The notes beneath the pieces are model-generated. The model saw only the letters and a program-made list of their open reading frames with translations, made no database searches and was not told the DNA's origin. From positions 3,532 through 67,531 of the forward strand of contig CAYZYE010000002.1 in NCBI GenBank assembly GCA_964481205.1: a stretch of 64,000 nucleotides of DNA, read 5' to 3'. The translations under genes were made by a program, and so were the position numbers. Below are positions 1 through 39,277 of this stretch, in pieces. The stretch's first letter is position 1, and each line of letters opens with the position of its first letter. Source of the DNA: an uncultured Anaerolineae bacterium (GTDB lineage Bacteria > Chloroflexota > Anaerolineae > JAFGEY01).

Positions 1-250
1 CTTTATGCACCTGCTCGATGCAACACAACACATGGCCGCCGGCGTGGACACATTGGGCGCAGCCCCGGACACCTGGCGCGCCGGCGACACGATCGTCCAG
101 CTGCACACCTTTTGGTACCCCGCCGAGGCCGGCGTCTATGCCGTCGAGTTGGGTTGGTACGCGCCGCCGGACGGCCCCCGGCTACCGGTAGACAACGCCG
201 GCGCGCCCGGCCAACGCATCCTCCTCGATCCGCTCAAGGTGTCGCCATGA
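1..250 (+). CDS. 3' fragment of a GT39-like membrane glycosyltransferase paralog; the gene starts upstream of the window, only the C-terminal domain is present
   Basis: The translated C-terminus (ELGWYAPPDGPRLPV...RILLDPLKV) matches the C-terminal domain of the 247..2541 and 7582..10080 proteins. The stop TGA at 248-250 overlaps the next start (ATGA). Confidence 0.5.
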   Translation, partial: FMHLLDATQHMAAGVDTLGAAPDTWRAGDTIVQLHTFWYPAEAGVYAVELGWYAPPDGPRLPVDNAGAPGQRILLDPLKVSP

Positions 251-2541
251 ACCGTGTTCTCTGCCGCCGCCCCGACCACATCGCCTCGATTTTGCTCCTC
301 CTCCTGTTCGGCTTGCTGATTTTCAGCATCGCCCTCAAGTCGCCGACTCTGGACGAGCAAAACCACATCGCCCGTGGGCTGGCCTGGCTAAAAACCGGCG
401 ATCTGCGCCTCAGCCAGGAGCACCCGCCGGGCGTCAACGCCTGGGAAGCGTGGCCGCTGCTGCTTGACCCAAACGTCAACCTGCCGTTAGACAACCCCAG
501 TTGGGCCAACGCCGAGTGGTATGGTTTTGCCGACCAACTGTTGTGGCGCGTCAACGACGGCGCGACGCGGGCGCGCATGCTCATGGCCGCGCGCGCGCCG
601 GTGATGTGGCTGACCTTGCTCCTCGCGGCGGTGGTCTATCGCTGGGCCAAAATGTTGAGCAACGGTTGGGGCGGCCTGTTGGCAATGAGCATGCTCATTT
701 TCGACCCCAACATCCTGGCCCACGGCCGCCTGACGACAACCGACATGGGCGTCACCTGCCTCGCCGTCGTCTCGATCTTTGCCCTGTGGCGGGCGCAGAA
801 CGTGGATCGCTGGCCGCGCTGGCTGTTTGCCGGCGCCACCCTGGGACTGGCGATGGGAACCAAGTTCTCGGCGCTGCTGCTGGCGCCGGTCATCGCCCTG
901 CTCGTCATTGCGGCCCGGACCAGCGCCAGGCCGCACCTGAGCATGCGGGAAAAAATGGGGCGACTCGCGATTTTGTTTGCAACAAGCCTGCTCGTCCTTT
1001 GGGCCGTGTACGGTTTCGAGTGGGGGACGAGCGACCTCTTGGGCAACTGGCCGCTGCCCGCGCCATCTTTTATCGACGGCCTCCACTCGATCCTCGAACG
1101 AACCGGCGGCGGCTCGACGGCCTTTTTGATCGGGCGCTATTCGGAGCGCGGCTGGTGGACTTTTTTTCCCATCGCGTTTGCGATCAAGACCCCGCTGCCG
1201 ACGCTGGCGTTGCTCGGCGCGGCGATCATCCTGGCGCTCAAATCGAAAACCTCGCCCGCCCCATACTCGCACCTCATCGTTCCGGCCCTGGCCTTTGGGG
1301 CGATGGCGATCGCCAGCGGGTTCAACATTGGCTACCGGCATATTTTACCCGTGCTGCCATTTTCGTACATTGCGGCCGGAGCACAGATCGCCAATCACAA
1401 GTCCATTCGCCGTTCACCGTTCGCCGTTCGCGGCCTGCTGCTGGCCGTCTGCTGCTTGCTGTTTGCCACTATCAACATCTTGCCCAACTATTTGGCCTTT
1501 TTCAACCTCGTCGCCGGCGGGCCGGGCAACGGCTATCGCTACCTGGTCGACTCGAACCTGGATTGGGGGCAAGACTTGCCCGCCCTGGCTCGATGGGTGA
1601 AACAACACAACGTTCAACGAATCAATTTGAGCTGGTTTGGCGCGGCGCATCCCGAAATGTACGATTTCGATTTCAACCCGCTGCCCGGATTTTGGCGTTT
1701 TGGCGGCGACCCGGCCGCGTATGGATTCAACCCCTATCGCCCGGCCCCCGGCATATACGCGATCAGCGCCAGCAACCTGCAAGGGATCAAACTCGCCGAC
1801 CGCGACACATTTGCCTGGTTTCGGGCGCAAGCGCCGCTTGACCACATTGGACATTCGATCTTGATCTATGAGGTCAAACCGGCCCCCCCGCCGCGTCAGG
1901 CGCTCGTGCTCCAAACGCCGATGACGCAGCTGTCCCAACCCGAACGCGCCCTGCTGCGCGAGGGCGCGTCCGTTCGACAATTCGACCCGGCAAGCGGGGC
2001 GATCTGGCCCGCCGTCGAGCGCGTCTGGTTTGTCACGCGCGAACCGTTGGCCTGGGGCAAAGCGGCGCGAAGAAAAGCGGGCTATGTCGTGACCGCCGGC
2101 GCTTGGAGCGAGGCCGAACCACGCTTCCGCCAGGCGCGTCCGTGCGACGCCGACACGCGCTTTGGGCGGCTGATCGCCTTGCGCCGCTACCAGGTGCCCA
2201 ACATGTCGCTCGCACGAGACGAAACGCTCACCGTGACCGCCTGGTGGACAGTCATCGACCGCCCGCGCCGCCCGGCCACGTCATTTGCACATCTGCTCGA
2301 CGCGCAGGGACGCTATGTCGCCGGGTGGGACGGCCTGACCGCGCCGGCGACGTGCTGGCAACCGGGCGATCTCGTCGAACAAATCTATGCCATCCCCCTC
2401 CCCGATGATTTGGCTCCGGCCAAGTATCAACTCGAAATCGGATGGTACGACGCCGAAAGCGTGCAACGCTGGCCGCTCACCGTCGGCGGCGCGCCCGGCG
2501 GCGACCGGCTGCTCATCGCCGACGTCGAGATCGGCCCGTAA
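247..2541 (+). CDS. Glycosyltransferase family 39 (PMT/ArnT-like, GT-C fold) polytopic membrane protein with a C-terminal extracytoplasmic domain
   Basis: Long ORF with many hydrophobic segments. A PMT-like DE motif (SPTLDEQNHIARG) lies in the first loop. It is a paralog of 7582..10080 (shared YRYLVDSNLDWGQDL block). The ATG at 247 overlaps the upstream stop. Confidence 0.75.
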   Translation: MNRVLCRRPDHIASILLLLLFGLLIFSIALKSPTLDEQNHIARGLAWLKTGDLRLSQEHPPGVNAWEAWPLLLDPNVNLPLDNPSWANAEWYGFADQLLWRVNDGATRARMLMAARAPVMWLTLLLAAVVYRWAKMLSNGWGGLLAMSMLIFDPNILAHGRLTTTDMGVTCLAVVSIFALWRAQNVDRWPRWLFAGATLGLAMGTKFSALLLAPVIALLVIAARTSARPHLSMREKMGRLAILFATSLLVLWAVYGFEWGTSDLLGNWPLPAPSFIDGLHSILERTGGGSTAFLIGRYSERGWWTFFPIAFAIKTPLPTLALLGAAIILALKSKTSPAPYSHLIVPALAFGAMAIASGFNIGYRHILPVLPFSYIAAGAQIANHKSIRRSPFAVRGLLLAVCCLLFATINILPNYLAFFNLVAGGPGNGYRYLVDSNLDWGQDLPALARWVKQHNVQRINLSWFGAAHPEMYDFDFNPLPGFWRFGGDPAAYGFNPYRPAPGIYAISASNLQGIKLADRDTFAWFRAQAPLDHIGHSILIYEVKPAPPPRQALVLQTPMTQLSQPERALLREGASVRQFDPASGAIWPAVERVWFVTREPLAWGKAARRKAGYVVTAGAWSEAEPRFRQARPCDADTRFGRLIALRRYQVPNMSLARDETLTVTAWWTVIDRPRRPATSFAHLLDAQGRYVAGWDGLTAPATCWQPGDLVEQIYAIPLPDDLAPAKYQLEIGWYDAESVQRWPLTVGGAPGGDRLLIADVEIGP

Positions 2542-2562
2542 TCCCCGCCTCTGCATTTTGCC

Positions 2563-2691
2563 TAGGGCTGTTCAATTCTAATTCGTGACTAAAGTCACCG
2601 CTGGTGAGGACTCGTCGCCGTAGGGGGACGACCAGCCAACGGCTCACCCAACGCGGTTTCAACCGCTGGATTGTAGAATTGAACAGCCCTG
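2563..2691. mobile_element. MITE-like repeat, family 1, copy 1 (short form). Terminal inverted repeats are CAGGGCTGTTCAATTCTAA ... TTGTAGAATTGAACAGCCCTG
   Basis: Near-identical copies occur at 29438..29600 and 49029..49201. It is flanked by the direct repeat GCATTTTGCC, a TSD-like duplication. Confidence 0.7.
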
Positions 2692-2697
2692 GCATTT

Positions 2698-2726
2698 TGC
2701 CAAAGCGCACCCAGGCGAGTATACTT
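2698..2726 (+). promoter_or_regulatory. Sigma70-like promoter candidate (TTGCCA-17-TATACT) for the 2770..10080 glycosyltransferase operon
   Basis: Hexamers read directly. An AAGAGG RBS precedes the ATG at 2770. Confidence 0.3.
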
Positions 2727-2769
2727 GTGTCCTACAACAGTCCCGCTTTCCTGAGATCAAGAGGCACCG

Positions 2770-5004
2770 ATGTTTACCGTAATATACCTTACCATATTGC
2801 TCTGCATCGACCTGGCGATCGCCTTGTTGCCGGCCGGCGATTGGCGCGCCGCGCTCGCCTTTGTGTTGCTGTGGGTCATGCCCGGCTATGCCTGGGGCCG
2901 GGCGCTCAAAAATCGCTGGCTGATCGGAATGGGCATTGGCGTTGGCGGCAACGTGCTGTTGATGTTGTTGCTCCATTACTGGCCCGGCCCGATCTCGTTT
3001 GGGCCGGCGCTGATCCTGTTTTCGCTATCCGCCTCGCTCCCGTTGTCGATGCGCCGCGTCGCGCCCAAAACGCCCCGAATCTCGCCTTACCTCATTGCCG
3101 TGCTACTCATCGGCGCATTGTTCCGGCTGCCCAACCTCGGCTACAGCGAATTTCAGGGCGACGAGGGAATCATTATGGTTCGCGCTGCCGCCGCGCTCAC
3201 CGGCGACGACGCCGAATTGTTTTTGCACCAAAAAGGGCCCGTCGAAATCTTGCTGCCGATGGCCGCCTGGACGCTCGGCGGCGCGCTCGACGAGTTTTGG
3301 GCGCGGTTGCCCTTTGCCTGGGCCGGTCTGCTGGGGCTGGCAACGATATTCGAGTTGGGACGGCGCTGGTTTGGCCCGGCCGGCGGGCTGGTCGCCGGGC
3401 TGCTGCTGGCGATCAATGGGTTTCACGTCGCCTTTGGCCGCATCGTCCAGTACCAGGATGTCGTGGTCTGGATGGGCTTGTTATCGCTCCTCGTCCTCGA
3501 CGAGTACCGCGTGCAGCGGCGACGGTGGGCGCTGCTGCTGGGCGCCGCTTTCCTGGCCGCCGGCGCGCTGGCCCATTACGACGCCATCCTCTTTGCCCCG
3601 GCCGCGGCCATGCTCGCCCTGCGCTGGACGCCGGGGCAACGATGGCGGTGGGTCGAGATCAAAGCGGGGCATTACCTCTATCCCTTACTCGTTGGTCTGA
3701 CAATCTTGGCAGTGTTCTATGTGCCATTCGTGCTCGATCCCAACTTTGGCAAGACCGCCAGCAACCTCGCCGGGGGGCGTGTGCGCGGCGGCCTGCATTT
3801 CAACGCCGGGCAAGCCTGGACAATGAGCACCGTCTACAATTCGAGCTATTACGTGATCGTGCTGCTGGCGCTGGCTCTGGCCTCACTGTGGGCGTGCAAA
3901 TCGCTGCCCCAGACGTGGTACGCCTGGGCGCTTTTTGCCGCGCCGTTCTTTTTCTACCTGATCATTGTTTTCGACCCGCGCACGCATCTCTACACCTGGT
4001 ACCCCGGCGCGGCGCTGCTCGCCGGCGCGGCCGCCGCCGGCCTGTGGAAACGCCTTCGCGGCGCAACCTGGCGCCGGGGTGTAATGACCGTGAGCGCGTT
4101 GATTTACATTCTCTTTGCCGGTTATACCTGGATAATGTTTATCGATCACCAGCCCGAATACCAGCGCACCTGGCCCGAAAACAAACGCCGCCTGTACTGG
4201 ACGACATATACCGCCATGCCGGTCTATGGACGTTTTGGCTTTCCGCACCGCGCCGGCTGGCACGCGATCGCCGCGCTGATCGCCGAGGGCGTGATCGAGG
4301 GGCGATATGCCAGCAACGAAGAACAGGAAATCACCGACTTTTACACCAGGCAAACCCCGCGCACGCACTGCGCCAAACCCAATGTGTACATTGTTGCCGA
4401 GCGGGTACAAGATCGAATCCGCATCGACTGGGACGAGCTGGAACGCGATTACACCCTGGCCGGCGTGGTCACGGCCTTTGGCGAGCCGCGCATCCGCTGG
4501 TACACGCCCGGCGACGTCGCCGAGGTGCTGCGCGTCGACCAGGCCGATTATCGCCAGTGGTGGACGCCGGAACAGGTCGCGCCGCCGGCCGCGCGCGGCC
4601 AACATCGCGTGCATTACGTGCTCGACGACCAGATCGAGTTACTCGGCTACGACCTGCGCGCCGGTCAGGCCAGGCCGGGCGGCTGGTTCGAGGTGACGCT
4701 GTATTGGCGCGCGTTGACGCCGCTGACGCGCAACAGCCAGGTTTTTGTCCACCTCTACGACGGGCAAACGCTGTGGGCGCAGCACGACGGCGCGCCAGAA
4801 TGCGCCGTCATGCCGACCACGCGCTGGGAGCCGGGGCAGGTGATCCCCGACCCGCACCTGGTTATGATCCGGCCCGACACGCCGGCCGGATCGATGTCGG
4901 TGCTGGTGGGAATGTACGACCTGCTGACCCTGGAACGACTGCCCACACCGGGCATGGTCAATAACCTCATTCCTCTGACCGAGATCGAGATTCAAGATGA
5001 GTGA
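2770..5004 (+). CDS. GT39/ArnT-like membrane glycosyltransferase (GT-C) with a C-terminal domain
   Basis: About 12 hydrophobic helices. An ArnT/PMT-type motif (YSEFQGDEGIIMVRAAAALTGDD) is present. The C-terminal ~110 aa are shared with the other paralogs. Confidence 0.7.
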   Translation: MFTVIYLTILLCIDLAIALLPAGDWRAALAFVLLWVMPGYAWGRALKNRWLIGMGIGVGGNVLLMLLLHYWPGPISFGPALILFSLSASLPLSMRRVAPKTPRISPYLIAVLLIGALFRLPNLGYSEFQGDEGIIMVRAAAALTGDDAELFLHQKGPVEILLPMAAWTLGGALDEFWARLPFAWAGLLGLATIFELGRRWFGPAGGLVAGLLLAINGFHVAFGRIVQYQDVVVWMGLLSLLVLDEYRVQRRRWALLLGAAFLAAGALAHYDAILFAPAAAMLALRWTPGQRWRWVEIKAGHYLYPLLVGLTILAVFYVPFVLDPNFGKTASNLAGGRVRGGLHFNAGQAWTMSTVYNSSYYVIVLLALALASLWACKSLPQTWYAWALFAAPFFFYLIIVFDPRTHLYTWYPGAALLAGAAAAGLWKRLRGATWRRGVMTVSALIYILFAGYTWIMFIDHQPEYQRTWPENKRRLYWTTYTAMPVYGRFGFPHRAGWHAIAALIAEGVIEGRYASNEEQEITDFYTRQTPRTHCAKPNVYIVAERVQDRIRIDWDELERDYTLAGVVTAFGEPRIRWYTPGDVAEVLRVDQADYRQWWTPEQVAPPAARGQHRVHYVLDDQIELLGYDLRAGQARPGGWFEVTLYWRALTPLTRNSQVFVHLYDGQTLWAQHDGAPECAVMPTTRWEPGQVIPDPHLVMIRPDTPAGSMSVLVGMYDLLTLERLPTPGMVNNLIPLTEIEIQDE

Positions 5005-7585
5005 GCCAGACGCGCGCAAGCACATCGAACGGGGTAACAACCCGCCGGGTCGCGCTGCGAACGCATTTTACAATAAATCTCGTATATTCATCAACACACA
5101 CTGGCCCGACCTGGCGGTCTTGATCGTGTACATTGTCCTCAGCCTGGCCATGTGCTGGCCGCTGCCCGCGCAGTTTGGCGCGCGTCTGGCGGGCGCGCAC
5201 TCGGACGCGCGCGTGTTTCAATGGAACAACTGGTGGATCAAGCAGGCCGTGTTGGCGCTAAAAAACCCAATGCGCACCGGCGCCATCTATTACCCCTCCG
5301 GCGCCTCGCTGTCGAGCCACAACACCAATTGGGTCAGTTCGCTGATCGCTTTGCCCCTCGATCTGCTTTTTGGCCCGGTGGCAGCCTACAACCTCACCTT
5401 TTTGCTCACCCTGTTCCTCGCCGCTTTTGCAATGTACCTGCTGGTGCGACACCTGACCCGGCAGCGCGGCGCGGCGCTGGTGGCCGGGCTGATTTTTGCC
5501 TTTTTCCCCTACCACCTCTCCGGCAACTGGGACGGGCAAATGAACCTCGCCAACATCCAATGGCTGCCCTTGTTCGCGCTCTTTTGCCTGCGCACGGTGC
5601 GCCGGCGCAGATGGCGCGACGCAGTGTGGGCCGGCATCTTTTTGGCCCTGTCCGGCCTCGACTGCCTGTTCTTCCCAATCTTTGCGGGCATGTGGGCGCT
5701 GATCTATGCGCTCTATGTGTTGTCGTTCGAGCGGCGCGCGCTCGACCGGCGGCTGTTCAAATTGGGCGGCGCCGGCGCGCTGGTCGCCCTGACGCTGCTC
5801 GCGCCGGTCATGATCCCGGCGCTGGCTGACGCCCGGCGCGGTTCGACCGAATCGGCGCTCAACTATTACGCCACGGAAAAATCGACCGACCTGCTGGCCT
5901 TTGTGCTGCCCAGCACACAGCACCCATTGCTGGGACGGCTCGTAGCCCCGATCTATGCCGGATTCCAGCACTGGCGTCCGGCGTTTCTGGGCGTAACGCC
6001 GCTGCTGCTGGCATTGTGGGGCCTGCTGCGCGGGCGCAAAAAAGCCGTCTTGTGGGGCGCGGCGCTGCTGTGGTTTGCGCTGCTGTCCCTGGGTACCACC
6101 TTGACCATTCAGGGCGTCGAATACACAAAAGTACCGATGCTTTACGATATTTTAACCAAATGGATTCCGGCGCTCAAGATCATCCGGCAGGCCAGCCGGT
6201 TCAACATCATGGTCATGTTTTCGCTGTCCGTCCTGGCAGGGCTGGGCTGCGCCGATCTGTGTGCGCGACGACACGGCGTCATCGCCGGCGCACTTGGGGC
6301 GATCATTTTGTTCGAGTACCTGGCCTGGCCCTGCCCCACCCTGCCCGCCGAGGTCTCGCCATTTTACACCCAACTGGCGCAAGAGACGGGCGATTTTGCG
6401 ATCCTCGAACTGCCGCTCGACGACTTTTACTCTCGCCGTTCGCTCTATGCGCAGACGATCCACGGCGCCAAATTGGTCAACGGCTACCTGGCCCGCGTCC
6501 CCGCCCACGCGCACGATTTTGTCCAGGGCAACGCGCTGCTGAAAAAGCTGTTCATCCGCATGGAGGTCGATCCCCGCCTGATCGACCTCGAACGCGAGAT
6601 CGGCCTGCTGCGCGCCAACGGCATCCGCTATGTCGTCATCCAAAAGCAGCCGCTCCCACCGCACCCGGCGGTCGAGGCCGGCGTGCAGGCCGGGTGGCGC
6701 GAGTTGTTCGGCCCGGACGTGTTTTACGAGGACGCGGACATTGCCGTCTACCGGCTGACTGCGCCCCGGCTGCCGCCCGCCGAGGCCGGCAAGCCGGTCA
6801 ACGACGACCTCGCGCTGGTCGAGGTGCAAACGCGCCGCGTCGAGGCGGCCGGGCGGCAGTGGCTGCGCGTCGATGTTTTGTGGAGCGCGCGGCAAAAAAT
6901 GACCCGCGATTACCGTTGCCAATTGTCTATCTTTGATGGTCAAGGAATTGAAACGACGTTCGACGATCTGATCTCGCCGCGTTTCCCCACCTCACGCTGG
7001 ACGCCGGGGCTGCTCGTCGCCGAACGCTATGCGTTGCCGATCCCGGCCGCGCTGCCGCCGGGCGAATACCGGCTGGCGATGACGCTTTCGGATGGCCGGC
7101 AAGAGACGGCATATACGACGTCGATCGTCGCGCCGCCAGAGGCGACATCGCTCAGTCCGGCGCTCGACGAGATGCAGGCCAGCGCCGACGTCACCTTTGC
7201 CGGCCGGCTGTGGCTGATCGGCTATACGGCGGCGCAGGACGGCGGGCAGCTCAAACTCGATCTGTACTGGCAGGCGCTGCGGGCCATGGCGGTCGATTAC
7301 AAAATGTTTGCGCACCTGATCGACCCCAACGACGATGCGATTGTCGCGCAGAGCGATTGGATGCCGCGCGACTGGTCTTATCCCACCTCATTGTGGGACC
7401 GCCGGGAAATGTTCATCGACCGGGTTGTGTTGGATGTCGGCGGCGTTGCCCCGGGCCAATACCGGCTGGCCCTGGGCGTGTACCGGCCGGGCGGTGATCG
7501 CCTGACGGCGGTGGACGGCGCGGGGCGCGAGATCGCGGACCATCGCGCGCTCATGGCGCAAATGGTCGAGGTGCGAGCGCCATGA
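4997..7585 (+). CDS. Polytopic membrane protein, putative GT-C glycosyltransferase, carrying two tandem copies of the family C-terminal domain
   Basis: The ATG at 4997 overlaps the upstream stop (ATGA). Hydrophobic N-terminal half. Two repeats of the W-rich ~100 aa domain at the C-terminus. Confidence 0.6.
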   Translation: MSEPDARKHIERGNNPPGRAANAFYNKSRIFINTHWPDLAVLIVYIVLSLAMCWPLPAQFGARLAGAHSDARVFQWNNWWIKQAVLALKNPMRTGAIYYPSGASLSSHNTNWVSSLIALPLDLLFGPVAAYNLTFLLTLFLAAFAMYLLVRHLTRQRGAALVAGLIFAFFPYHLSGNWDGQMNLANIQWLPLFALFCLRTVRRRRWRDAVWAGIFLALSGLDCLFFPIFAGMWALIYALYVLSFERRALDRRLFKLGGAGALVALTLLAPVMIPALADARRGSTESALNYYATEKSTDLLAFVLPSTQHPLLGRLVAPIYAGFQHWRPAFLGVTPLLLALWGLLRGRKKAVLWGAALLWFALLSLGTTLTIQGVEYTKVPMLYDILTKWIPALKIIRQASRFNIMVMFSLSVLAGLGCADLCARRHGVIAGALGAIILFEYLAWPCPTLPAEVSPFYTQLAQETGDFAILELPLDDFYSRRSLYAQTIHGAKLVNGYLARVPAHAHDFVQGNALLKKLFIRMEVDPRLIDLEREIGLLRANGIRYVVIQKQPLPPHPAVEAGVQAGWRELFGPDVFYEDADIAVYRLTAPRLPPAEAGKPVNDDLALVEVQTRRVEAAGRQWLRVDVLWSARQKMTRDYRCQLSIFDGQGIETTFDDLISPRFPTSRWTPGLLVAERYALPIPAALPPGEYRLAMTLSDGRQETAYTTSIVAPPEATSLSPALDEMQASADVTFAGRLWLIGYTAAQDGGQLKLDLYWQALRAMAVDYKMFAHLIDPNDDAIVAQSDWMPRDWSYPTSLWDRREMFIDRVVLDVGGVAPGQYRLALGVYRPGGDRLTAVDGAGREIADHRALMAQMVEVRAP

Positions 7586-10080
7586 GCAGACAAGGCGAAA
7601 TTTTTGTCGCCACGGCGCTGCTGGCGATCATGTTTGCCCTAATGATCACCAGCGCCGTGCAAAAATCACCCACCTATGACGAACAGGTTTATATCTCGCG
7701 CGGTTACGCCTTTGTCAAACGAGGCGACCTGCACATCCTGGTCGGCGAGCCGGTGCTGCTCAACGCGCTCAACGCGCTGCCGCTGCTGGCGCTGCCGGGC
7801 GTCCGTCTGCCCACCGGCCAACCGGCGTGGGCGGGCGACAATTTTCACCCCATCGCCGAGGCGTTCATGTGGCAGGTCAACGCCAACGCCGATCAAATGC
7901 TGTTCCTGGCCCGCGCGCCGACGATGCTGCTCGCGTTGCTGCTGGCCGTTTTTGTCTACCGCTGGGCGCGAGAGGCGTTCGGTCGCGCGGCGGCGCTGCT
8001 GTCACTGGCGCTGTGCGTGTTCGACCCCAACTTGCTCGCCCACGGGCGGCTGGCCGCCACAGATCTCGGCTCGACGGCGCTCATTTTCATCTGTACCTAT
8101 TGGCTGTGGCAATTGCTGCGCCGGCCGTCCTGGGGCAACGTGCTGTGGAGCGGCTTTTTTTTCGGGCTGGCGCAGGCCGCGCGATTTTCGGCGCTGCTCT
8201 TTGCGCCGGGCTTTGCCCTGCTCTTTGCCGCGCGCGTCCTCTCGCCGGCGCCTTTTGCGCTGCCCCGGCGCGGCGCAAGCGTCGAGGTGCGGCCAACGCC
8301 ATCCCCCCAGCCCCGGTGGAAGCGCCTGGTCTGGCTGGCGGCGGCCGGCGCGCTGATCGTGCTGATCGGTTATGCGACTTTGTGGGCTGTACACGGCTTT
8401 CAATGGACGCCGGTCCGTGGCGCGACGACCTGGCCCGTGCCGGCGGCATCTTTGTGGGAACAATTGCGCTACATTTCGGGGCGTCTGTCCGGCGACAAGG
8501 ATCCCGTGACCGGTTTTTTGCTGGGCGAGTTGTATGTGGGCGGCAAATGGCAATATTTTCCGGTGGCGTGGCTGCTAAAAACCCCGCTGCCGACATTGGC
8601 GCTGTGGCTGACCGCCGTTTTCGGCAGCCTCCGTTCTGCGCTGCGACGCGCCGGACCGGATCGCCGGCCGGGGTTGGCCCTCTGGCTGCCCCCGCTGCTC
8701 TATTTTTTGATTACCTTGAACAGCAAACTCAATCTTGGTTATCGCTACATTTTGCCCGTGCTGCCTTTTGCCATCGTGCTGGCCGGGCGGTGTGGAGCAT
8801 GGGCGGTCGAGCGCATCTCGACGCTGGGCGGAGAACGTCGCGCGCTGGCGACATCGTTGGCCGCGCTGGCGGTCGGCTGGGCGGTGTGGAGCGGGATCGA
8901 CATTTGGCCGCATTATCTGGCCTTTTTCAACGAGCTGGCCGGCGGCCCCGACGGAGGCTGGCGCTACCTGGTCGATTCAAACCTCGATTGGGGCCAAGAC
9001 CTCAAACTGCTCAAACGATGGGCAGACGAGCATCACGTCGCCAAGATCAAGCTGGCTTATTACGGCGAGGGCGTCCCCGCGTATTATGGGCTGGACATAG
9101 AGCCGCAAATTTGCTCCCCCGACCGCTGGCAGCACCCCCTGTACCACGATCTCTATTTCGACGACCCCGCGCCCGGCGTATACGCGATCAGCGCCAACCT
9201 GCTTCAGGGGCGCAATCTGGCGCGCCCGGAGACCTATCGCTGGTTCCGCGAGCGCGCCCCGGTGGACAAGGTGGGGTATTCGATTTTCATTTACGAGGTC
9301 CCCCGGTGGGGAGATGAGGCAGTGATCGCGCTGTCGGGGTTGTCGCCGCCGGACATTCGCGCCGAGGATTACGCGCTGCTCGGCGGCAATGATGTGCGCG
9401 TGCTGTGGTTCGACGCCGCGCGGTCGGCGCTTTTTCCGTCCGGCGATCAGCCCACGTTCTCGTTTGTGCCTGGTGAAATGGAAACGCCCCCGGCGCTCGT
9501 ACATTTGGGGGCAGGCGCTTTGCTTCGCTCAAGCACACTCCGCGACGGCCGCCCGCTGCGTATTTTCAAAAATATAGATCGTGTTGATGCGCTACGTTAC
9601 ATTGATTCCCTTGATTTCGCGGCCTGGTATATGCCCGCGTCGACATTTGCGCCCGGCGATCCGGCCGGGCATGGCGCGCCGTTGGGCGCGCCGGTGCGGT
9701 TTGGCTGTGTCGAATTGCTGGGCTATGAATCGAGCCAAAGCAATGCGCTGCCCGGCGAGAGGTTGACGTGGATCACGTACTGGCGCGTCGTCGAGCCGGC
9801 AGCAGAGCCGCTGACGCTGTTTGTCCACCTGCTCGACGCCGGCGGCGTCAATCGCGCGGGCGAGGATCGCGGGGACGTATGGTATGATAACTGGCGGCGC
9901 GGCGACGTATTTGCGCAGCTAGAAGAGATTCAGCTGCCGGCCGAGTTGGCGGCCGGACGTTATCAAGTCGAGATCGGCTGGTACACGCCGAGGACGATGG
10001 CGCGGCTGCCGGTGCTCAAAGAGGGGCAAGAGATCGCCGACCGGATATTGTTGGCGCCGGTGACGATAGCCGACCGGTGA
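7582..10080 (+). CDS. GT39 family membrane glycosyltransferase, paralog of 247..2541
   Basis: ATGA overlap with the upstream gene. Conserved blocks (DEQVYISRGYAF, WRYLVDSNLDWGQDL). Same C-terminal domain. Confidence 0.75.
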   Translation: MSRQGEIFVATALLAIMFALMITSAVQKSPTYDEQVYISRGYAFVKRGDLHILVGEPVLLNALNALPLLALPGVRLPTGQPAWAGDNFHPIAEAFMWQVNANADQMLFLARAPTMLLALLLAVFVYRWAREAFGRAAALLSLALCVFDPNLLAHGRLAATDLGSTALIFICTYWLWQLLRRPSWGNVLWSGFFFGLAQAARFSALLFAPGFALLFAARVLSPAPFALPRRGASVEVRPTPSPQPRWKRLVWLAAAGALIVLIGYATLWAVHGFQWTPVRGATTWPVPAASLWEQLRYISGRLSGDKDPVTGFLLGELYVGGKWQYFPVAWLLKTPLPTLALWLTAVFGSLRSALRRAGPDRRPGLALWLPPLLYFLITLNSKLNLGYRYILPVLPFAIVLAGRCGAWAVERISTLGGERRALATSLAALAVGWAVWSGIDIWPHYLAFFNELAGGPDGGWRYLVDSNLDWGQDLKLLKRWADEHHVAKIKLAYYGEGVPAYYGLDIEPQICSPDRWQHPLYHDLYFDDPAPGVYAISANLLQGRNLARPETYRWFRERAPVDKVGYSIFIYEVPRWGDEAVIALSGLSPPDIRAEDYALLGGNDVRVLWFDAARSALFPSGDQPTFSFVPGEMETPPALVHLGAGALLRSSTLRDGRPLRIFKNIDRVDALRYIDSLDFAAWYMPASTFAPGDPAGHGAPLGAPVRFGCVELLGYESSQSNALPGERLTWITYWRVVEPAAEPLTLFVHLLDAGGVNRAGEDRGDVWYDNWRRGDVFAQLEEIQLPAELAAGRYQVEIGWYTPRTMARLPVLKEGQEIADRILLAPVTIADR

Positions 10081-10123
10081 GAAAAAACAATTGCCGTGAA
10101 TAGTTGCGCGGCCGGCGCGACCT

Positions 10124-10152
10124 TGACAACAAACCACCTCCATTGTAGAATG
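10124..10152 (+). promoter_or_regulatory. Sigma70-like promoter candidate (TTGACA-17-TAGAAT) upstream of ridA, followed by an imperfect palindrome TGAATGA-C-TCGTTCA
   Basis: Read directly from sequence. Confidence 0.35.
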
Positions 10153-10219
10153 TCAACACGAACCTGGACGAGCAATTGAATGACTCGTTCACGTAATCCA
10201 ATTCACAGAGGAGCTGTCT

Positions 10220-10609
10220 ATGACACGTCAAGTTGTTTCTACCCCCCATGCGCCGGCGGCAGTCGGGCCGTATTCTCAAGCCATCAAGATCGACCAGCTG
10301 GTGTACACCGCCGGGCAGTTGGGTATGGACCCGCAAACCGGCAAACTGGTCTCCGGCGGCGTTCAGGCTCAAACCCGCCAGGCGCTCACCAACCTGCAAG
10401 CCGTTCTCGATGCCGCCGGTGCCTCGATGGACACGGTGATCAAGACCACCGTCTTTATGGACGACATGCATGATTTCCAGGCAATGAACCAGGTCTATGC
10501 CGAGTTCTTTGCCCAAGCGCCGCCGGCGCGCTCGGCGGTGCAGGCCGCGGCGCTCCCGCTGGGCGGGCTGGTCGAGATCGAAGCGGTTGCGGTCATCGAC
10601 CAATCATGA
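10220..10609 (+). CDS. ridA: RidA/YjgF family reactive-intermediate deaminase
   Basis: 129 aa with the typical RidA sequence (PAAVGPYSQA...TVFMDDMHDFQAMNQVYAEFF). An AGGAG RBS is present. Confidence 0.9.
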   Translation: MTRQVVSTPHAPAAVGPYSQAIKIDQLVYTAGQLGMDPQTGKLVSGGVQAQTRQALTNLQAVLDAAGASMDTVIKTTVFMDDMHDFQAMNQVYAEFFAQAPPARSAVQAAALPLGGLVEIEAVAVIDQS

Positions 10610-10619
10610 CCGAGACCTC

Positions 10620-12089
10620 ATGTTTGCCCGCCTGAACCTCGAACGGCTGGTCACGGCCATCGTACTCGTTGCCGTGTTTGCGATGGCCGTGCGTGTGCCG
10701 GCCAGCCCGGACACATGGTGGCACTTGCGCTGCGGCGAGGTGCAGTGGCAAACCCGCGCGGTGCTCAAATCCGATCTGTTTTCGCACACCGCGCAAGGCG
10801 CGCCCTGGGTCAACCAAAGCTGGCTGCCTCAATTGGCAATGTACGGCCTGTGGACACTGGGCGGCTTTCCAGCCCTGGCCCTGGCCGTCGCGGCCCTGGT
10901 TGCCGGCGCGGTCGCCCTGATTCTGGCCGCCTCTGAGGCGCCGGGGCGTTACGGTTACCTGTGGCGCGCCCTGGTCGTCATTTGGGCCGCCATCTCGACG
11001 GGGCGCGTGTGGGCGGCGCGCCCGCACCTGATCTCCTTTTTGCTCACCGCCGCGTGGCTCTATTTACTCGATCGACACCGCGCGGGCAAGCCGAAGGCGC
11101 TGTACTGGCTGCCAGGGCTGATGGCGCTGTGGGCCAACAGCCACGGCGGTTATATCGTCGGCTTTTTGCTGCTCTGCGCCGAGATCGGCGGCCAGGTATT
11201 GGACTGGCTGCCGGCGCGCCGAACGAGTTCACTCTGGCCGCGCATCAAGCCGTTCGTCCTCCTGACTCTGCTCGCGGCACTGGCGGCATCGATCAACCCA
11301 CAGGGTCTTGGTCTGCTCTTGTTTCCCTTTCAGACCTTGAGCAGCCCGGCTCAACAAAACTATGTCGCCGAATGGGCTTCGCCCGACTTTCACGCCGCCG
11401 ATATGCTGCCTTTTTTGGGGCTGCTTTTAGCCACGTGGAGCGCGCTGGTGTTCAGCACCCGGCCGGTCAACGGCGCCGAGTGGCTCCGGCTGCTGGGCTT
11501 TTCGGCGATGGCGCTCCGTTCGGGCCGCTATCTGGGATTGTGCGCCCTGGTCATGGCGCCACTGTTGGCGCAGCACGGCGCCGCCGCGCTGGCGCGATTT
11601 GGGTTGCCCGGCGGCAACAATGTTCGATCGCGGCCAACGCGAGGGCATCCGGCGATCAACTGGCTGCTGCTCGCGCTCATTGTAACCGCGTCCGTCCTCA
11701 AAATCGCCCGTCCCCTCGACGCCGCGCTGATCGAACGCATTCACCGGCAGTCCTTTCCCGTCGACGCCGTTGACTATATGCAGCAACGCCAACTGCCCGC
11801 CACGCTGTTCAACGAATACGCCTGGGGCGGATACCTGATTTGGCGTCACATTCCCGTCTTTATCGACGGGCGCGCCGACCCTTATGGCGATGCGCTGATC
11901 ACTGCCTATCGCAACGCCATTTCGGCACAGCCGGGCTGGGAGCAAACGCTAGATTCATCCGGCGTCCACACGGCATTGCTCGCCGCCAACAGCCCTCTGG
12001 CAATGGTGATGGAAACAAACGCCGGTTGGAAAAATGTGTACCGGGACGACATCGCCGTCCTTTATGTAAAAACACTCGCCCACCGTTGA
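10620..12089 (+). CDS. Polytopic integral membrane protein of unknown function, possibly GT-C-like
   Basis: About 490 aa, mostly hydrophobic helices. The start was chosen at the first ATG after the ridA stop. Confidence 0.55.
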   Translation: MFARLNLERLVTAIVLVAVFAMAVRVPASPDTWWHLRCGEVQWQTRAVLKSDLFSHTAQGAPWVNQSWLPQLAMYGLWTLGGFPALALAVAALVAGAVALILAASEAPGRYGYLWRALVVIWAAISTGRVWAARPHLISFLLTAAWLYLLDRHRAGKPKALYWLPGLMALWANSHGGYIVGFLLLCAEIGGQVLDWLPARRTSSLWPRIKPFVLLTLLAALAASINPQGLGLLLFPFQTLSSPAQQNYVAEWASPDFHAADMLPFLGLLLATWSALVFSTRPVNGAEWLRLLGFSAMALRSGRYLGLCALVMAPLLAQHGAAALARFGLPGGNNVRSRPTRGHPAINWLLLALIVTASVLKIARPLDAALIERIHRQSFPVDAVDYMQQRQLPATLFNEYAWGGYLIWRHIPVFIDGRADPYGDALITAYRNAISAQPGWEQTLDSSGVHTALLAANSPLAMVMETNAGWKNVYRDDIAVLYVKTLAHR

Positions 12090-12163: not shown

Positions 12164-12226
12164 TCGAATCCAGTGGCTACCCTGGGGGAGCTGATCGAGA
12201 TCATCCAGCCATTTTGGGAGCGCCAG

Positions 12227-13444
12227 ATGGCCCAGTACAAGTTCAAATGCCGCCCTTGCCCGCCCCACATCCGCCGACAATGTATCCAAGAAGCGCACGT
12301 CTCGCCTGCGGCAAAACGGATCATCATCCAATCATTTGAAGCAAGAACAGACACGCAAGCGACCTGGGATCTGCTGCAACACAATTGCCTGCTCGTCCGC
12401 CGCGAAAACATGCCCACCATCGCGCCGGTGTCACGCAAGGGAGGTTTGCGAGATCGCCTTTTTGGCCCAGAGCCGCCTCCTGCCCAGGAAGACAAAGCAT
12501 CTCAACAACCGCCCCCCAGCCAGCAGCTGCCCGTGGTCAAACCATACCAGCCGCGTTCCCCGGCTGCTGAACCCACAACGTCTCAGCCGACCACTCAAAC
12601 AGTCTCGCAGACCAGGTTCATCCGCACCCAACGCCCGGCCGATCGCGCCAGAACACCTACGCCTCGGACGGTTCATTTGCCCAGGCCGCAAACACCCGTT
12701 TCCAAGGCGCCAATCCTGCGCTATCCGCGCGCCCGGCAGCCGCACGTCGTTGCCAACGAACAACCCGGACCGAGAATACTGGTCTCGCAGGTGATCGGCC
12801 ACCGCATCTCGCTGCCCACCGACGGCGAGTTGGTGCTGGGGCGCTTTGATCCGTTCACCAAAATCAAGCCCGACATTGACTTGACATTTGAAGACCGGAT
12901 CACCAGGGGCATTTCGCGCCGCCACGCCCAAGTGATCGGTTGGCAAGGACACTATGCGATCAAGGATTTGGGCAGCACCTTTGGCACCTGGGTCAACGAC
13001 AAACGGTTGTCGCTAGAACAAAAACAACCCTTGCGCATCGGCGATATGATCCGGCTGGGTAATTGTGTCCTATTTCTGGACCGTCCGCCAAACCTATGGA
13101 AAACGCCGTTGTCTCTGGAACGCTGCTTTTTCTATTCCACGTTTTCGGGACAATACCTGGCCATCCCGGCCAAACCGGCGATCGTCATCGGGCGCGCCGA
13201 CGCCGGCCTGGGGTTCAAGCCGGACATCGATCTCGGCGCAGAAGAAGAAGCGGCGTCAGCCGTCTCACGACGACATGCCAGACTACTTTGGCGAAACGGG
13301 CAACTCGTCGTCCAAGATTTGGGCAGCACACAACACACCGCGATCGATGGACGCCAGGTGCCCATCGGCGCCAAGACGCCCATCTTGCCCGGACAGCATT
13401 TGTGGTTGGGGGGATACACCATCGCTTTTGATATGGTCGAGTGA
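12227..13444 (+). CDS. Twin FHA-domain protein with an N-terminal Cys-rich motif and a Pro-rich linker
   Basis: Two FHA-like segments (GRxDP...DIDL...SRRHA...GSTxGTWVN...GD.I.LG). The start is at ATG 12227 (GGGAG RBS). The track's alternative start is at 12173. Confidence 0.8.
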   Translation: MAQYKFKCRPCPPHIRRQCIQEAHVSPAAKRIIIQSFEARTDTQATWDLLQHNCLLVRRENMPTIAPVSRKGGLRDRLFGPEPPPAQEDKASQQPPPSQQLPVVKPYQPRSPAAEPTTSQPTTQTVSQTRFIRTQRPADRARTPTPRTVHLPRPQTPVSKAPILRYPRARQPHVVANEQPGPRILVSQVIGHRISLPTDGELVLGRFDPFTKIKPDIDLTFEDRITRGISRRHAQVIGWQGHYAIKDLGSTFGTWVNDKRLSLEQKQPLRIGDMIRLGNCVLFLDRPPNLWKTPLSLERCFFYSTFSGQYLAIPAKPAIVIGRADAGLGFKPDIDLGAEEEAASAVSRRHARLLWRNGQLVVQDLGSTQHTAIDGRQVPIGAKTPILPGQHLWLGGYTIAFDMVE

Positions 13445-13495
13445 TCTCGCCCCTACTGAAACACAACACACCATATTCCATTGAGGAGCATCACG

Positions 13496-14320
13496 ATGAA
13501 AGGCAGCACAGCCGCTATCGGCAACATGCCCCCAAGAATCATTTGGGAGCCAGACAACAAAGAAATGATCTTGATTTCGGGCGGTGAATTCTTGATGGGA
13601 CGAGACGACGGGCAGGATGACGAACGTCCGGCGCATACAGTTTATGTATTGCCATTCTACATCGACCGTTATCCTGTTACGCAACAAGAATACCATCGCT
13701 TTGTTCAGGCAACGGATCATCCGATCCCAAGGTACGATGTCGAGTGGGTCGATTCGAGCGCCTATAATTGGGACTCGGATACCCGCACGCCGCCGCCGGA
13801 CAAACTCGACCATCCCGTTGTCCTGGTCACCTGGGGCGACGCGCTGGCTTACAGCCAATGGGCGCAAAAACGCCTGCCCACCGAAGCCGAGTGGGAACGC
13901 GCGGCGCGCGGCACAGACGGACGTCGTTGGCCCTGGGGCGACAAACTGAAAGAGGAAAATTGCAACACCCGTTACCTCGATCTCGGCCAGACCACGCCCG
14001 TTCACCAGTTCTCCCCGCAAAGCGACACCCCTGAAGGAGTCGGAGATCTGATCGGCAACACCTGGGAGTGGACCGGATCACTTTACCGGCCATACCCATT
14101 TGACGAGAACGACGGGCGGCAGGACCCCAGCGCGCCGGGGTGGCGCGTCTTGCGCGGGGGGTCGTGGCTCAACGATTTTTCACAGGCCAATTCGACCACC
14201 CGGCTCGACGGCGACTTTTTGTTCTATACCAACGTCGGCTTTAGGTGCGCCATCTCGGTCAGCGTGGTCCAAGATGCGCTGTACGCAGCGTTTATCGATG
14301 AATGTCAAAGTTCATCTTGA
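13496..14320 (+). CDS. Formylglycine-generating-enzyme (FGE/SUMF1) domain protein
   Basis: FGE-sulfatase domain motifs (HPVVLVTWGDALAYSQWAQKRLPTEAEWERAARG, FRCA). AGGAG RBS. Confidence 0.8.
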   Translation: MKGSTAAIGNMPPRIIWEPDNKEMILISGGEFLMGRDDGQDDERPAHTVYVLPFYIDRYPVTQQEYHRFVQATDHPIPRYDVEWVDSSAYNWDSDTRTPPPDKLDHPVVLVTWGDALAYSQWAQKRLPTEAEWERAARGTDGRRWPWGDKLKEENCNTRYLDLGQTTPVHQFSPQSDTPEGVGDLIGNTWEWTGSLYRPYPFDENDGRQDPSAPGWRVLRGGSWLNDFSQANSTTRLDGDFLFYTNVGFRCAISVSVVQDALYAAFIDECQSSS

Positions 14321-14371
14321 TCCACTCAGACTCTGGTTCACGCCTGACCCAGTCGATCCTGGAGTGCATAC

Positions 14372-15160
14372 ATGCCGCAATACCTCAAATATCCAGACCC
14401 AATTCTGCCCCAACCGCGCGACATAGAGCCGCCTGGGCCGAGAATTCTCGTCTCCCAGGCGCTGGGACATCGCATTTTGCTGCCCGAAGATGGCGAACTT
14501 GTGCTGGGACGCTTTGACCCGACCTATAAAGTCAAACCGGACATCGATCTGACGGCTGAAGACAAAGCCGCGTGGGGCATTTCTCGACACCACGTGCGGC
14601 TTGTCGGCTGGCGGGGGCAATATGAAATCGAGGATATGGGGAGCAGCAACGGCACCTGGGTCAACGATGAACAAATCGAGTCCGGGCGCAAAGTCCCGCT
14701 CACGGTGGGCGACCAGGTACGCCTGGGCGGCAGCATTTTCTATTTCGACCGCCCGCCGACGATCTGGAAAATGCCCATCACCCGGCAACAAGGCTTTTTC
14801 TATGTCACCTTTACCGGACACTATTACCCGCTGCCCGGCCAAAAGACGATCCTGGTTGGACGTTCCGACTCTAAACTCGGTTTCAAGCCCGACATTGCGC
14901 TGAATGACGAAGACGAGTCGATCACCGTTGTCTCGCGCAAACACATCAAATTGACGCTTCGCGGCGAACAATACATGGTCGAGGATATGGGCAGCTCGTT
15001 TGGCACCAGGTTGGACGGGACCAAAGTCTACGCCGGGATCAAAATCCCCCTCCATCCAGGACAGCACTTGTGGCTGGGCGGATACACACTGGCCTTTGAT
15101 GTGATCGCCAAGCCGACCGCCCCGCCATCGACAGGCGCAAAAACAGCCCCACTGCTCTAG
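14372..15160 (+). CDS. Twin FHA-domain protein, paralog of 12227..13444 without the N-terminal extension
   Basis: Collinear similarity to the C-terminal 260 aa of 12227..13444 (PGPRILVSQ.LGHRI.LP.DGELVLGRFDP). Confidence 0.8.
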   Translation: MPQYLKYPDPILPQPRDIEPPGPRILVSQALGHRILLPEDGELVLGRFDPTYKVKPDIDLTAEDKAAWGISRHHVRLVGWRGQYEIEDMGSSNGTWVNDEQIESGRKVPLTVGDQVRLGGSIFYFDRPPTIWKMPITRQQGFFYVTFTGHYYPLPGQKTILVGRSDSKLGFKPDIALNDEDESITVVSRKHIKLTLRGEQYMVEDMGSSFGTRLDGTKVYAGIKIPLHPGQHLWLGGYTLAFDVIAKPTAPPSTGAKTAPLL

Positions 15161-15195
15161 TGGGGCTGTTTGGTGGGCCTTGCCGCGCGCCGTGC

Positions 15196-15810
15196 TTATT
15201 CTTCGATCCCCGCCAAATCGATCGCTGTGGCCGCAATCGGCGCCAAAGTTGTCAACATCTCTAAATCTCTGGCGTCAAAGGGCTGCCCGGAGAACTTGTT
15301 GACCACTTCGATCACGCCCAACATGATCCCGCGACTGATCAACGGCACGCAGGCCAAAGACTGGGTGCGAAATTGAAACGTACTGTCAACGGTCGACGAA
15401 AAACGCTCATCCTGAACAATGTCGTTGGCAATCACCGGCTCGCGATGCTCGACCACCCAGCCGGCGATCCCTTGCTCCCGCCGCATGCGGTGTCCTTGCA
15501 ACTTGGCCGCAAGCACGCCGCGAACCAACACAAAAACCAACTCGTCGGTATCGGGATCGAGCAAAATCAAAGACCCATCGGCCGCATCGACCACGCGCAA
15601 GGCCTCATACATGATCCGGTCCAACAAAGGCTGAAGCTGCTCTCGCGTATCCAAATTGGCAATCACCTGCTGCAACCCACGCACCGACTTGAGACAACCG
15701 CGCAAAGCGGCATTCTCTTCATCCAACTCTTGATTGTCTTGCTGCAACCGTTGATTTTCATCTTGCAGAAAACGCAATGTGGTAGACACAGCGCCAATGC
15801 CATCTGCCAT
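15196..15810 (-). CDS. GAF-domain protein with an N-terminal coiled coil
   Basis: GAF-like core. The start was set at MADGIG so the gene abuts the stop of the amidase gene. Confidence 0.65.
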   Translation of the reverse strand: MADGIGAVSTTLRFLQDENQRLQQDNQELDEENAALRGCLKSVRGLQQVIANLDTREQLQPLLDRIMYEALRVVDAADGSLILLDPDTDELVFVLVRGVLAAKLQGHRMRREQGIAGWVVEHREPVIANDIVQDERFSSTVDSTFQFRTQSLACVPLISRGIMLGVIEVVNKFSGQPFDARDLEMLTTLAPIAATAIDLAGIEE

Positions 15811-15811
15811 C

Positions 15812-16618
15812 TCAGCCTCCCTGTCGATACGTCCCCTCGATAAAACACTTGATCCCGTTGACAATGCCCGTCGCCACCCAAGCCGACCTTTTTGTCAACA
15901 AAACCCGGTCGGCGCGCATAAACCCAATCTCTATGATCGCGCCCGGCGTCTCGGGCGCAATTTCATAAAAAGCATGATATTCGGTCATATCATACGTAAT
16001 ACTGTTCTGGTGAAATGGAAGCCCTGTTGCTTCCTGATACCTGGCGATCAAACAAGAAACCAGGCGATCCTCGATATCGGGCACCAGGCTGGATGAAACC
16101 CGCGCCACCTTGAAACCCGACGCCTCGGCCACATTGCACGAATCGGCGTGAATCGAAACCAAAGCCGCGGCCTCGTACCCGTCCAGTTTGGGCGAAAACT
16201 CGGCCAACATTTCGGCATTGTACCCCGAAAGCGCCAGTTGAGAAACGACACGCTGGGCGACGTCGAGATTGATCTCGACCTCTTGCAGCCCATCCGGGCA
16301 AACAGCGCCGACATCGTTCTGCCAGTGTCCAACCACAATGCCGATCTTGAGCGGCCGCTGCTGCGCGGCAACCGAGGTTTGGGTCCTGGCCGGCAACGGG
16401 GTCATCAATGGCACGGCGGTCGGCGCCGGGATCATCGGCTGCGGCGTTTTCAGCGCCACCAACTGCGTCGCCGTCATCGAGTCGGCCACAGCCGCCGGAT
16501 TCTGCACCATCCAGGCCACGCGCAAACCCAAATAAATGATCGCCAGCAAGACAACAACCAGCGCGGCAATCAAAATCCGCTGCACGCCCTCGAGCATATT
16601 TCGACGAATCAACGACAT
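15812..16618 (-). CDS. N-acetylmuramoyl-L-alanine amidase (Amidase_3 family) with an N-terminal TM anchor
   Basis: Amidase_3 signature segments (KIGIVVGHWQND..., SIHADS, IEIGFM). Confidence 0.8.
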   Translation of the reverse strand: MSLIRRNMLEGVQRILIAALVVVLLAIIYLGLRVAWMVQNPAAVADSMTATQLVALKTPQPMIPAPTAVPLMTPLPARTQTSVAAQQRPLKIGIVVGHWQNDVGAVCPDGLQEVEINLDVAQRVVSQLALSGYNAEMLAEFSPKLDGYEAAALVSIHADSCNVAEASGFKVARVSSSLVPDIEDRLVSCLIARYQEATGLPFHQNSITYDMTEYHAFYEIAPETPGAIIEIGFMRADRVLLTKRSAWVATGIVNGIKCFIEGTYRQGG

Positions 16619-16645
16619 CTCTCAACCTGACCCCAATAAAAGGCT

Positions 16646-17779: not shown

Positions 17780-17798
17780 AACTTTGGGTTTCCTTGGG

Positions 17799-23605: not shown

Positions 23606-23617
23606 AAAAGGAGCAAA

Positions 23618-29377: not shown

Positions 29378-29437
29378 TGGGTCTCCTGTACAACACATGG
29401 TGAAAAGCGCCAAACTTGAGATCAGTACAGGGCTGTT

Positions 29438-32864: not shown

Positions 32865-32892
32865 ACATTACATATCGTAAAGGAGCGATCCA

Positions 32893-39254: not shown

Positions 39255-39277
39255 CATTGAAAAGGAAAGGAAAACGT

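Follow-up and report, generated by a model that had tools for sequence, protein, structure and literature searches.

The 64,000-nt stretch of an uncultured Anaerolineae genome analysed here (the window) begins with a tandem array of five genes, G0 to G4, whose products we assign, from profile matches and a modelled structure, to the PMT_2 superfamily of membrane glycosyltransferases with a predicted GT-C_A fold. These genes recur as a module in a second Anaerolineae genome and represent old subfamilies. As the most likely role of the array, at about even odds, we see glycosylation of a cell-envelope polysaccharide outside the cytoplasmic membrane, by analogy with the mycobacterial Emb and Aft enzymes. 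A sequence-only reading of the window had described five consecutive genes, the first truncated by the window edge, and all five are indeed present, on the plus strand. The gene boundaries used here yield exactly the same proteins as prediction on the source contig at NCBI (74,248 nt). Two further window genes enter the comparison: G6, a solitary relative of G0, and G5, a membrane protein encoded just beyond the array. The array genes, with lengths in amino acids (aa), and one element among them are as follows.

2–250 (entered as 1–250), plus strand: G0, cut by the window edge so that only its last 82 codons remain (translation).
247–2541, plus strand: G1, predicted GT-C glycosyltransferase of 764 aa in the subfamily of G4 (PMT_2 and PMT above gathering).
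2770–5004, plus strand: G2, predicted GT-C glycosyltransferase of 744 aa (PMT_2, hhalign, loop-1 motif).
4997–7585, plus strand: G3, the most divergent GT-C protein, 862 aa (marginal PMT_2 match, hhalign, conserved Asp).
7582–10080, plus strand: G4, predicted GT-C glycosyltransferase of 832 aa (PMT_2, 37% identity to G1, loop-1 motif).
2697–2725, plus strand: promoter-like site TTGCCA-17-TATACT 5' of G2 (a consensus match only, from a consensus scan).

G0 and G1 meet in an ATGA at 247–250, G2 and G3 overlap by 8 nt (ATGAGTGA, 4997–5004), and G3 and G4 share an ATGA at 7582–7585, all as first described. From these overlaps the sequence-only reading had deduced one co-translated operon. The tight coupling stands, but the five genes may not form a single unit. 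A spacer of 228 nt separates G1 from G2, and the promoter-like element listed above is kept 5' of the G2 ortholog in the second genome (~5105–5140) as TTGCAA...TATACT. Because this element is conserved in both genomes, two coupled transcription units, G0-G1 and G2-G3-G4, appear more likely than one five-gene operon, judging from consensus matches only. An alternative open reading frame (ORF) at 2604–4964 (786 aa) was rejected as a gene, being Arg-rich and out of frame; GC content at third codon positions (GC3, 0.80) and Pfam favour 2770–5004.

The second genome is the Anaerolineae metagenome-assembled genome (MAG) GCA_016931365.1 (locus L001). It contains five genes (732, 809, 751, 863 and 807 aa) in identical order, with identical 4-, 8- and 4-nt overlaps and a G1-G2 spacer that is also long, and the genes downstream of the array differ from those in the window. 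Thus, the comparison of related genomes that had been proposed for this locus finds both order and overlaps again. Each window protein is 59–68% identical to its positional ortholog in L001, and the G0 fragment is 68% identical to residues 651–732 of the 732-aa first array gene. The five-gene module is maintained as a unit, and its arrangement is no chance. Two further loci, L018 and L026, show a variant order, G0-G1-G0'-G0''-G4.

Among the paralogs, the highest identity is 37%, between G1 and G4 over their full length. The G0 ortholog family is related to G6, also over the full length (hhalign E 1.8e-85), and is homologous to G1/G4 as well. G2 and G3 are separate subfamilies, tied to the others at profile level only: G2 aligns with G0, G4 and G6 over ~600 columns (E 1e-26 to 1e-31), and G3 aligns with G6 over 520 columns (E 7e-32). 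Given at most 37% identity between paralogs versus 59–68% to orthologs, the duplications are far older than the divergence of the two genomes, and recent tandem duplication is rejected. Hence the homology on which the sequence-only reading relied is real, but the array genes are members of old subfamilies rather than recent local duplicates.

These identities also bear on the idea that the array reflects local gene amplification, which would have left redundant or decaying copies with no division of labour. A tandem same-strand layout is what such a process would produce, and GT-C copy number does vary from 1 to 7 within 20 kb across related loci. However, the contrast between paralogs and same-position orthologs largely refutes it, each subfamily keeps the catalytic Asp-Glu pair invariant, along with many further positions, and all the ORFs are intact with a strong GC3 coding signal. 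We consider amplification very improbable. Distinct subfamilies conserved as a module instead agree with the earlier suggestion of several functionally distinct enzymes, as opposed to one housekeeping enzyme.

Two Pfam profiles had been proposed as checks on family membership, PF13231 (PMT_2; gathering cut-off 26.1 bits) and PF02366 (PMT; 22.7 bits). The first recognizes G1 (42.2 bits), G2 (41.8), G4 (40.8), G6 (38.9) and, marginally, G3 (27.7), all above gathering; the L001 ortholog of G0 (19.9 bits) and G5 do not pass. For PF02366 the outcome is narrower: only G1 passes (32.7 bits), G4 (15.8) and G6 (17.0) fall below, and G2 and G3 give no match. A Pfam scan found no MIR domain in any paralog, which rules out the eukaryotic PMT architecture only; bacterial Pmt likewise has no MIR domain. 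At E ≤ 0.1, no NCBIfam model, those for ArnT included, matches any of the GT-C proteins. G3 additionally gives DUF2079 and PTPS_related matches below threshold and has YfhO/DUF2079-like traits. Sequence and profile searches of the PDB returned nothing significant for G4, the G5 profile or the C-terminal domain profile, and the best match of the G1/G4 profile among PDB sequences was a weak one to yeast Pmt1 (E 0.027).

The structural model of G4 comprises ~11 membrane helices, then ~390 residues of alpha/beta and beta structure, with a C-terminal immunoglobulin (Ig)-like beta-sandwich. It has the polytopic membrane domain with a GT-C fold that characterizes the GT-C superfamily (GT-C_A fold). 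Fold comparison gave figures of 25.7 for ALG12, 24.7 for ArnT, 24.2 for Pmt4, 23.4 for STT3B, 22.9 for Pmt2 and 22.6 for AglB; the top Foldseek match was Pmt4, and EmbB, AftA, AftB and AftD were among the fold matches. Since the fold fails to discriminate between GT39, GT83 and GT22, 'GT39', the family name used in the sequence-only reading, is only an annotation-pipeline label, and with PF02366 passing in G1 only, MIR absent and the fold about equally near ALG12, ArnT, Pmt4 and STT3, we find no specific support for it. The broader description, polytopic glycosyltransferases of the GT-C, lipid-carrier-dependent type, is supported by the PMT_2 matches, the predicted fold and an acidic motif in loop 1. 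The superfamily is a known one, and public annotation already labels the array proteins as members of it.

An Asp-Glu pair directly follows the first transmembrane (TM) helix, TM1, in G1 (D36-E37), G2 (D131-E132), G4 (D33-E34), G6 (D44-E45) and the G0 ortholog (D46-E47). Among the homologs of all five subfamilies the pair is fully or almost fully conserved (60/61 for D36-E37 of G1). The G3 family has a single conserved Asp followed by a Trp-rich stretch, so that the PMT/ArnT-type Asp-Glu loop motif once ascribed to the whole array holds everywhere except in G3. G2 carries an extra N-terminal extension of ~100 aa with two predicted TM helices. Further invariant positions in the G1/G4 family (D161, K333-T334-P335, N384, G386-Y387-R388 and the stretch VDSNLDWGQDL) are candidate donor-phosphate and acceptor-binding residues, and may have equivalents in ArnT or PMT. 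The N-termini are rich in Arg and Lys; therefore, from the positive-inside rule only, we predict an extracytoplasmic position for the loop-1 motif and for the C-terminal domains.

All paralogs end in a beta-sandwich of ~120 aa, detectable by hhalign (E 1e-19 to 1e-26) even in G3, which has two tandem copies and for which this module is the strongest link to the other paralogs. The module is marked by the pattern L.GY...PG..L.V.L.W, F.HL.D, PT..W.PG, PG.Y.L..G.Y and RLPV, and it is what the 82-aa fragment of G0 encodes. It matches no Pfam family and has no sequence relative in the PDB, and a word-index search with the C-terminal domain of G4 alone returned only two short matches. The nearest solved folds to the module in the G4 model include the O-antigen carbohydrate-binding domains of Wzt, and there is resemblance also to the Ig-like domains of glycoside hydrolase family 2 (GH2) enzymes and dextranase, to RbmA and to NPC2. 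In the GT-C enzymes EmbA/B/C, AftD and GT136 ORF12, the acceptor polysaccharide is bound by C-terminal Ig-like carbohydrate-binding modules (CBMs) (PMC11127046).

A genome scan with the G1/G4 alignment detected 583 relatives, nearly all in MAGs of Anaerolineae or other Chloroflexota; the same scan with the single G4 protein as query found none. For every window protein, the closest relatives are in Anaerolineae (Chloroflexota) MAGs. GT-C ORFs of 450 aa or more were counted at the 38 loci for which 18 kb of sequence or more was available. At least two are present in 32 of these loci and at least three in 25, and 8/38 have a same-strand tandem run of at least five. Tandem GT-C arrays are therefore typical of the lineage as a whole, and the window is no special case. 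One CAZyme survey mentions numerous GT83 hits in Anaerolineae, without analysis (PMC11650866), and a literature search found no paper on these arrays. Several other gene families occur near some of the arrays: a YfhO-type GT-C in 13 related loci, a flippase-like LPG_synthase_TM gene at a distance of 0–2.7 kb in 10, and a GT2 gene, a candidate polyprenyl-phosphate-sugar synthase, at the same distance in 5 (in L018, one GT2 gene lies 49 nt 3' of the G4 ortholog).

From these features we infer the class of donor, the topology, the acceptor and the way in which the paralogs share the work. To our knowledge, every characterised GT-C enzyme transfers sugar from a polyprenyl-(di)phosphate carrier to an extracytoplasmic acceptor. 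By analogy, each array enzyme would take its sugar from a polyprenyl-phosphate carrier at the outer face of the cytoplasmic membrane and pass it on to an extracellular acceptor; the GT2 and flippase-like neighbours in 5 and 10 related loci lend such a donor indirect support. Sugars or linkages would differ from one of the five subfamilies to the next, while the acceptor, as it grows, would be held by the C-terminal sandwich. Chloroflexota, considered as a phylum, have neither the lipopolysaccharide (LPS) nor the β-barrel assembly machinery (BAM) pathway, and their outer layers are thought to consist of polysaccharide or protein (PMC13319060). Taken together, the conserved motif, the distinct subfamilies in fixed order, the CBM-like tail and the LPS-free phylum point to several non-redundant steps on a common envelope glycoconjugate. 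A cell-envelope polysaccharide is in our view the likeliest acceptor, in which case the module would correspond in function to the EmbC-EmbA-EmbB/Aft enzymes of mycobacteria or to systems in which a GT-C enzyme glycosylates side chains.

The likeness to EmbC-EmbA-EmbB and to AftA, AftB and AftD lies in the tandem paralogous GT-C genes, the polytopic membrane domain, the acidic loop-1 motif and, in a C-terminal region outside the membrane, Ig-like carbohydrate-binding modules, which in Emb/Aft hold the acceptor (PMC11127046); the Emb/Aft donor is a polyprenyl-phosphate sugar. By sequence, the array proteins are not members of these families, as they contain neither the Pfam arabinosyltransferase domain nor the Emb C-terminal domain. 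Three-component systems (Gtr, YfhO/CsbB and GT136 ORF12) are similar in that a GT-C enzyme with a C-terminal CBM modifies a pre-formed surface glycan, and a minority of the related loci do have GT2 and flippase-like genes next to their arrays. They differ in having one GT-C enzyme per system rather than five in a row, and in the window no synthase or flippase is linked to the array.

Several observations count against an Emb/Aft-like role. Among the window ORFs scanned there is no GT2 donor synthase or flippase, and the logic of a three-component system is not visible locally. The PMT matches and the first rank of Pmt4 in Foldseek fit protein acceptors equally well. In addition, 15 related loci have arrays in which a secreted Thr/Pro-rich Ig-like protein that matches no Pfam family is embedded, a hint that the substrate at those loci is a protein. 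At ~540 aa, this secreted or membrane-anchored protein combines Thr-rich Ig-like repeats with a Pro-rich linker and a beta-rich domain at the C-terminus, and it is a candidate glycosylation substrate or accessory. It is found in Ardenticatenaceae, Promineifilaceae and Leptofilum MAGs, for example in L010 (8101–9777), L004 (8326–9825) and L012 (8229–9821). The window's own array adjoins none of these genes (YfhO-type GT-C, LPG_synthase_TM, GT2 or the secreted protein). We also considered whether the secreted protein of cluster 2, or clusters 7 and 12, could represent cryptic GT-C proteins, and rejected this (hhalign probability <1%).

These points would fit a different acceptor. The five enzymes could be protein O-glycosyltransferases (e.g. 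O-mannosyltransferases) in the style of PMT, TMTC or actinobacterial Pmt, modifying Ser/Thr-rich secreted, sheath or S-layer-like proteins at their exit from the membrane; specificity for the protein substrate would vary from paralog to paralog, and the sandwich would bind protein or glycoprotein. Besides the Foldseek ranking, the yeast Pmt1 match and the secreted protein just described, this would accommodate the PF02366 score of G1, the many G1/G4 homologs with precomputed PF02366 hits and the GH38 alpha-mannosidase gene near G6. The ~11-helix membrane domain also resembles that of PMTs, whose helix number we take to be comparable. Yet the window has no candidate substrate gene in or beside its array, G2, G3, G4 and G6 either fall short of the PF02366 threshold or give no match, and MIR and TPR domains are absent. 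The fold is as near to ALG12, ArnT and STT3, and the C-terminal module resembles polysaccharide-binding domains. Moreover, PMTs (GT39), the actinobacterial Pmt among them, are without the C-terminal alpha/beta and beta-sandwich domains of the array proteins. Protein O-glycosylation is the main rival reading, though we consider it less likely than not.

A membrane lipid would be yet another acceptor. Enzymes of the ArnT/Rgt kind decorating the head group of a membrane lipid or glycolipid (a lipid A analogue or lipoglycan anchor) could serve to tune surface charge. We think this quite improbable. The LPS biosynthesis pathway is reported to be absent from Chloroflexota (PMC13319060), such that lipid A, the acceptor of ArnT, is not expected there. 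No ArnT model of NCBIfam matches, and five conserved, distinct paralogs are hard to fit to a single head-group modification. ArnT itself (GT83-type, ~550 aa) has nothing comparable to the extracytoplasmic C-terminal region of 300–420 aa with beta-sandwich modules.

Emb/Aft-like glycosylation of an envelope polysaccharide is the reading that we favour, at about even odds. A more speculative extension, which we put forward tentatively and consider on balance rather unlikely, is that the G0–G4 module and the longer arrays form the core assembly and branching machinery of an uncharacterised non-LPS outer layer or sheath (heteropolysaccharide or glycoprotein) of filamentous Chloroflexota, with each subfamily making one linkage and the C-terminal module constituting a new carbohydrate-binding family. 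If so, the array subfamilies and the G5 family would add several new GT-C families to CAZy, and a system of the Emb/Aft kind would exist outside Actinobacteria. For the outer layers of the Chloroflexota envelope, built without LPS and BAM, the arrays offer concrete candidate genes for the assembly of glycans or glycoproteins; the lineage is abundant and poorly cultured, and filaments from wastewater and sediment belong to it. What is added here, namely the conserved five-gene module, the old subfamilies, the shared Ig-like module, the common occurrence of arrays in Anaerolineae and the reassignment of G5, is at present an annotation-level refinement of known enzyme families and not a new mechanism.

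The sequence-only reading had counted two genes outside the array as further paralogs, and they fared differently. These genes and the elements paired with the first are the following.

10123–10151: promoter-like site TTGACA-17-TAGAAT at the RidA-G5 unit (consensus scan).
10220–10609: RidA (Ribonuc_L-PSP), lying between the array and G5 and paired with G5.
10620–12089, plus strand: G5, a 489-aa membrane protein of a family without a Pfam entry, with a predicted STT3/PglB/AglB-like GT-C fold (AlphaFold2 model, Foldseek).
35793–37742, plus strand: G6, a solitary GT-C protein of 649 aa in the G0 subfamily (PMT_2 38.9 bits, hhalign to the G0 family, D44-E45).

G5 gives no Pfam match at E ≤ 10 and no NCBIfam match, and its homologs are all named 'hypothetical', although the family is large (40,570 cluster representatives at E ≤ 1e-3; 15,273 at E ≤ 1e-30). 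Profile-profile comparison with any of G0–G4 or G6 yields a homology probability below 8%, ruling out G5 as a PMT_2 paralog. Furthermore, the block RidA-G5-FHA-FGE-GAF-amidase-M23-rho-dnaA also occurs at L082 (pair at 9618–11551), without a GT-C array. On account of this synteny, the pairing with RidA and the missing profile relation, we place G5 outside both the array and its paralogy, in a separate RidA-linked unit, and dismiss the earlier assignment. That G5 is a GT-C-fold gene follows from its predicted fold only. The model, with a predicted local distance difference test score (pLDDT) of 93.1, gives query-normalised TM-scores of 0.56–0.63 to STT3, AglB and PglB (GT66), its best fold matches, with E values down to 2e-6; ArnT and AftA come next.

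As in the array proteins, an acidic residue follows TM1 in G5, an invariant Asp (D31, in DTWWH). In the C-terminal domain, the order of an invariant Arg/Glu/Arg and an aromatic-Gly motif is, we assume, akin to that in STT3/PglB/AglB. The motif reads YNWGGYLIW in the family consensus and YAWGGYLIW in the window protein, and its (N/A)WGGY presumably sits where oligosaccharyltransferases have WWDYG. G5 differs from these enzymes in giving no STT3 Pfam match (E ≤ 10), in having only 489 aa and in this replacement of WWDYG. As WWDYG is the sequon-binding motif, N-glycosylation of N-x-S/T sequons by G5 is unlikely.

G6, in contrast to G5, does belong to PMT_2, within the subfamily of G0, and its status as a further paralog is upheld. 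It is flanked by a PHP/CehA-type metallohydrolase gene on one side and an M20 peptidase gene on the other, the latter overlapping the end of G6 by 14 nt (from 37729). The order PHP-G6-M20 recurs on three short metagenome contigs carrying an identical protein. Two genes 3' of G6 lies the GH38 alpha-mannosidase gene (39242–41824, 860 aa), a neighbour that makes a tie of G6 to mannose-containing glycans possible.

The G1-G2 spacer contains an element resembling a miniature inverted-repeat transposable element (MITE).

2564–2690, no strand assigned: MITE-like insertion with 17-nt perfect terminal inverted repeats, AGGGCTGTTCAATTCTA.

This copy is flanked by a 10-nt direct repeat, GCATTTTGCC, at 2553–2562 and 2692–2701, which is likely a target-site duplication, and it abuts the –35-like hexamer of G2 on the upstream side. 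Two other copies lie at 29430–29598 and 49031–49199, making three in the window. The element's pattern has 6 exact matches in the window, versus 0.26 expected by chance. The first copy has an internal deletion, and the third is inverted internally. No copy was found in the 84 related loci that were fetched.

The window is chromosomal and near the origin, with dnaA at 20185–21657, rho, an FhaA/RodA/penicillin-binding protein (PBP) cell-wall cluster and, at 52–64 kb, a ribosomal-protein/secY/rpoA block. A block of cell-wall and signalling genes spans 12173–27229. It includes three FHA-domain proteins (starting at 12173 and 14372, and an FhaA-type one at 22242), an FGE-sulfatase-domain protein, a GAF protein, Amidase_3, a LysM-M23 peptidase, rho, dnaA, a PNP_UDP_1 phosphorylase, FtsW/RodA and a PBP transpeptidase. 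Immediately 5' of dnaA, a 1.1-kb spacer of lower GC content (19083–20184) is likely oriC. Finally, the region 31182–34260 encodes a 560-aa protein with a signal peptide and TM segment, which matches no Pfam or NCBIfam family and has the C-terminal end ...GGCACACACAGCACACAGGGR. Directly 3' of it is a radical SAM/SPASM enzyme, which carries a PqqD-like RRE domain and scores below all NCBIfam equivalog cut-offs. Together the two resemble a substrate and its maturase, of an unclassified kind, with the protein tail (Cys-Ala repeat) as the part that is matured.

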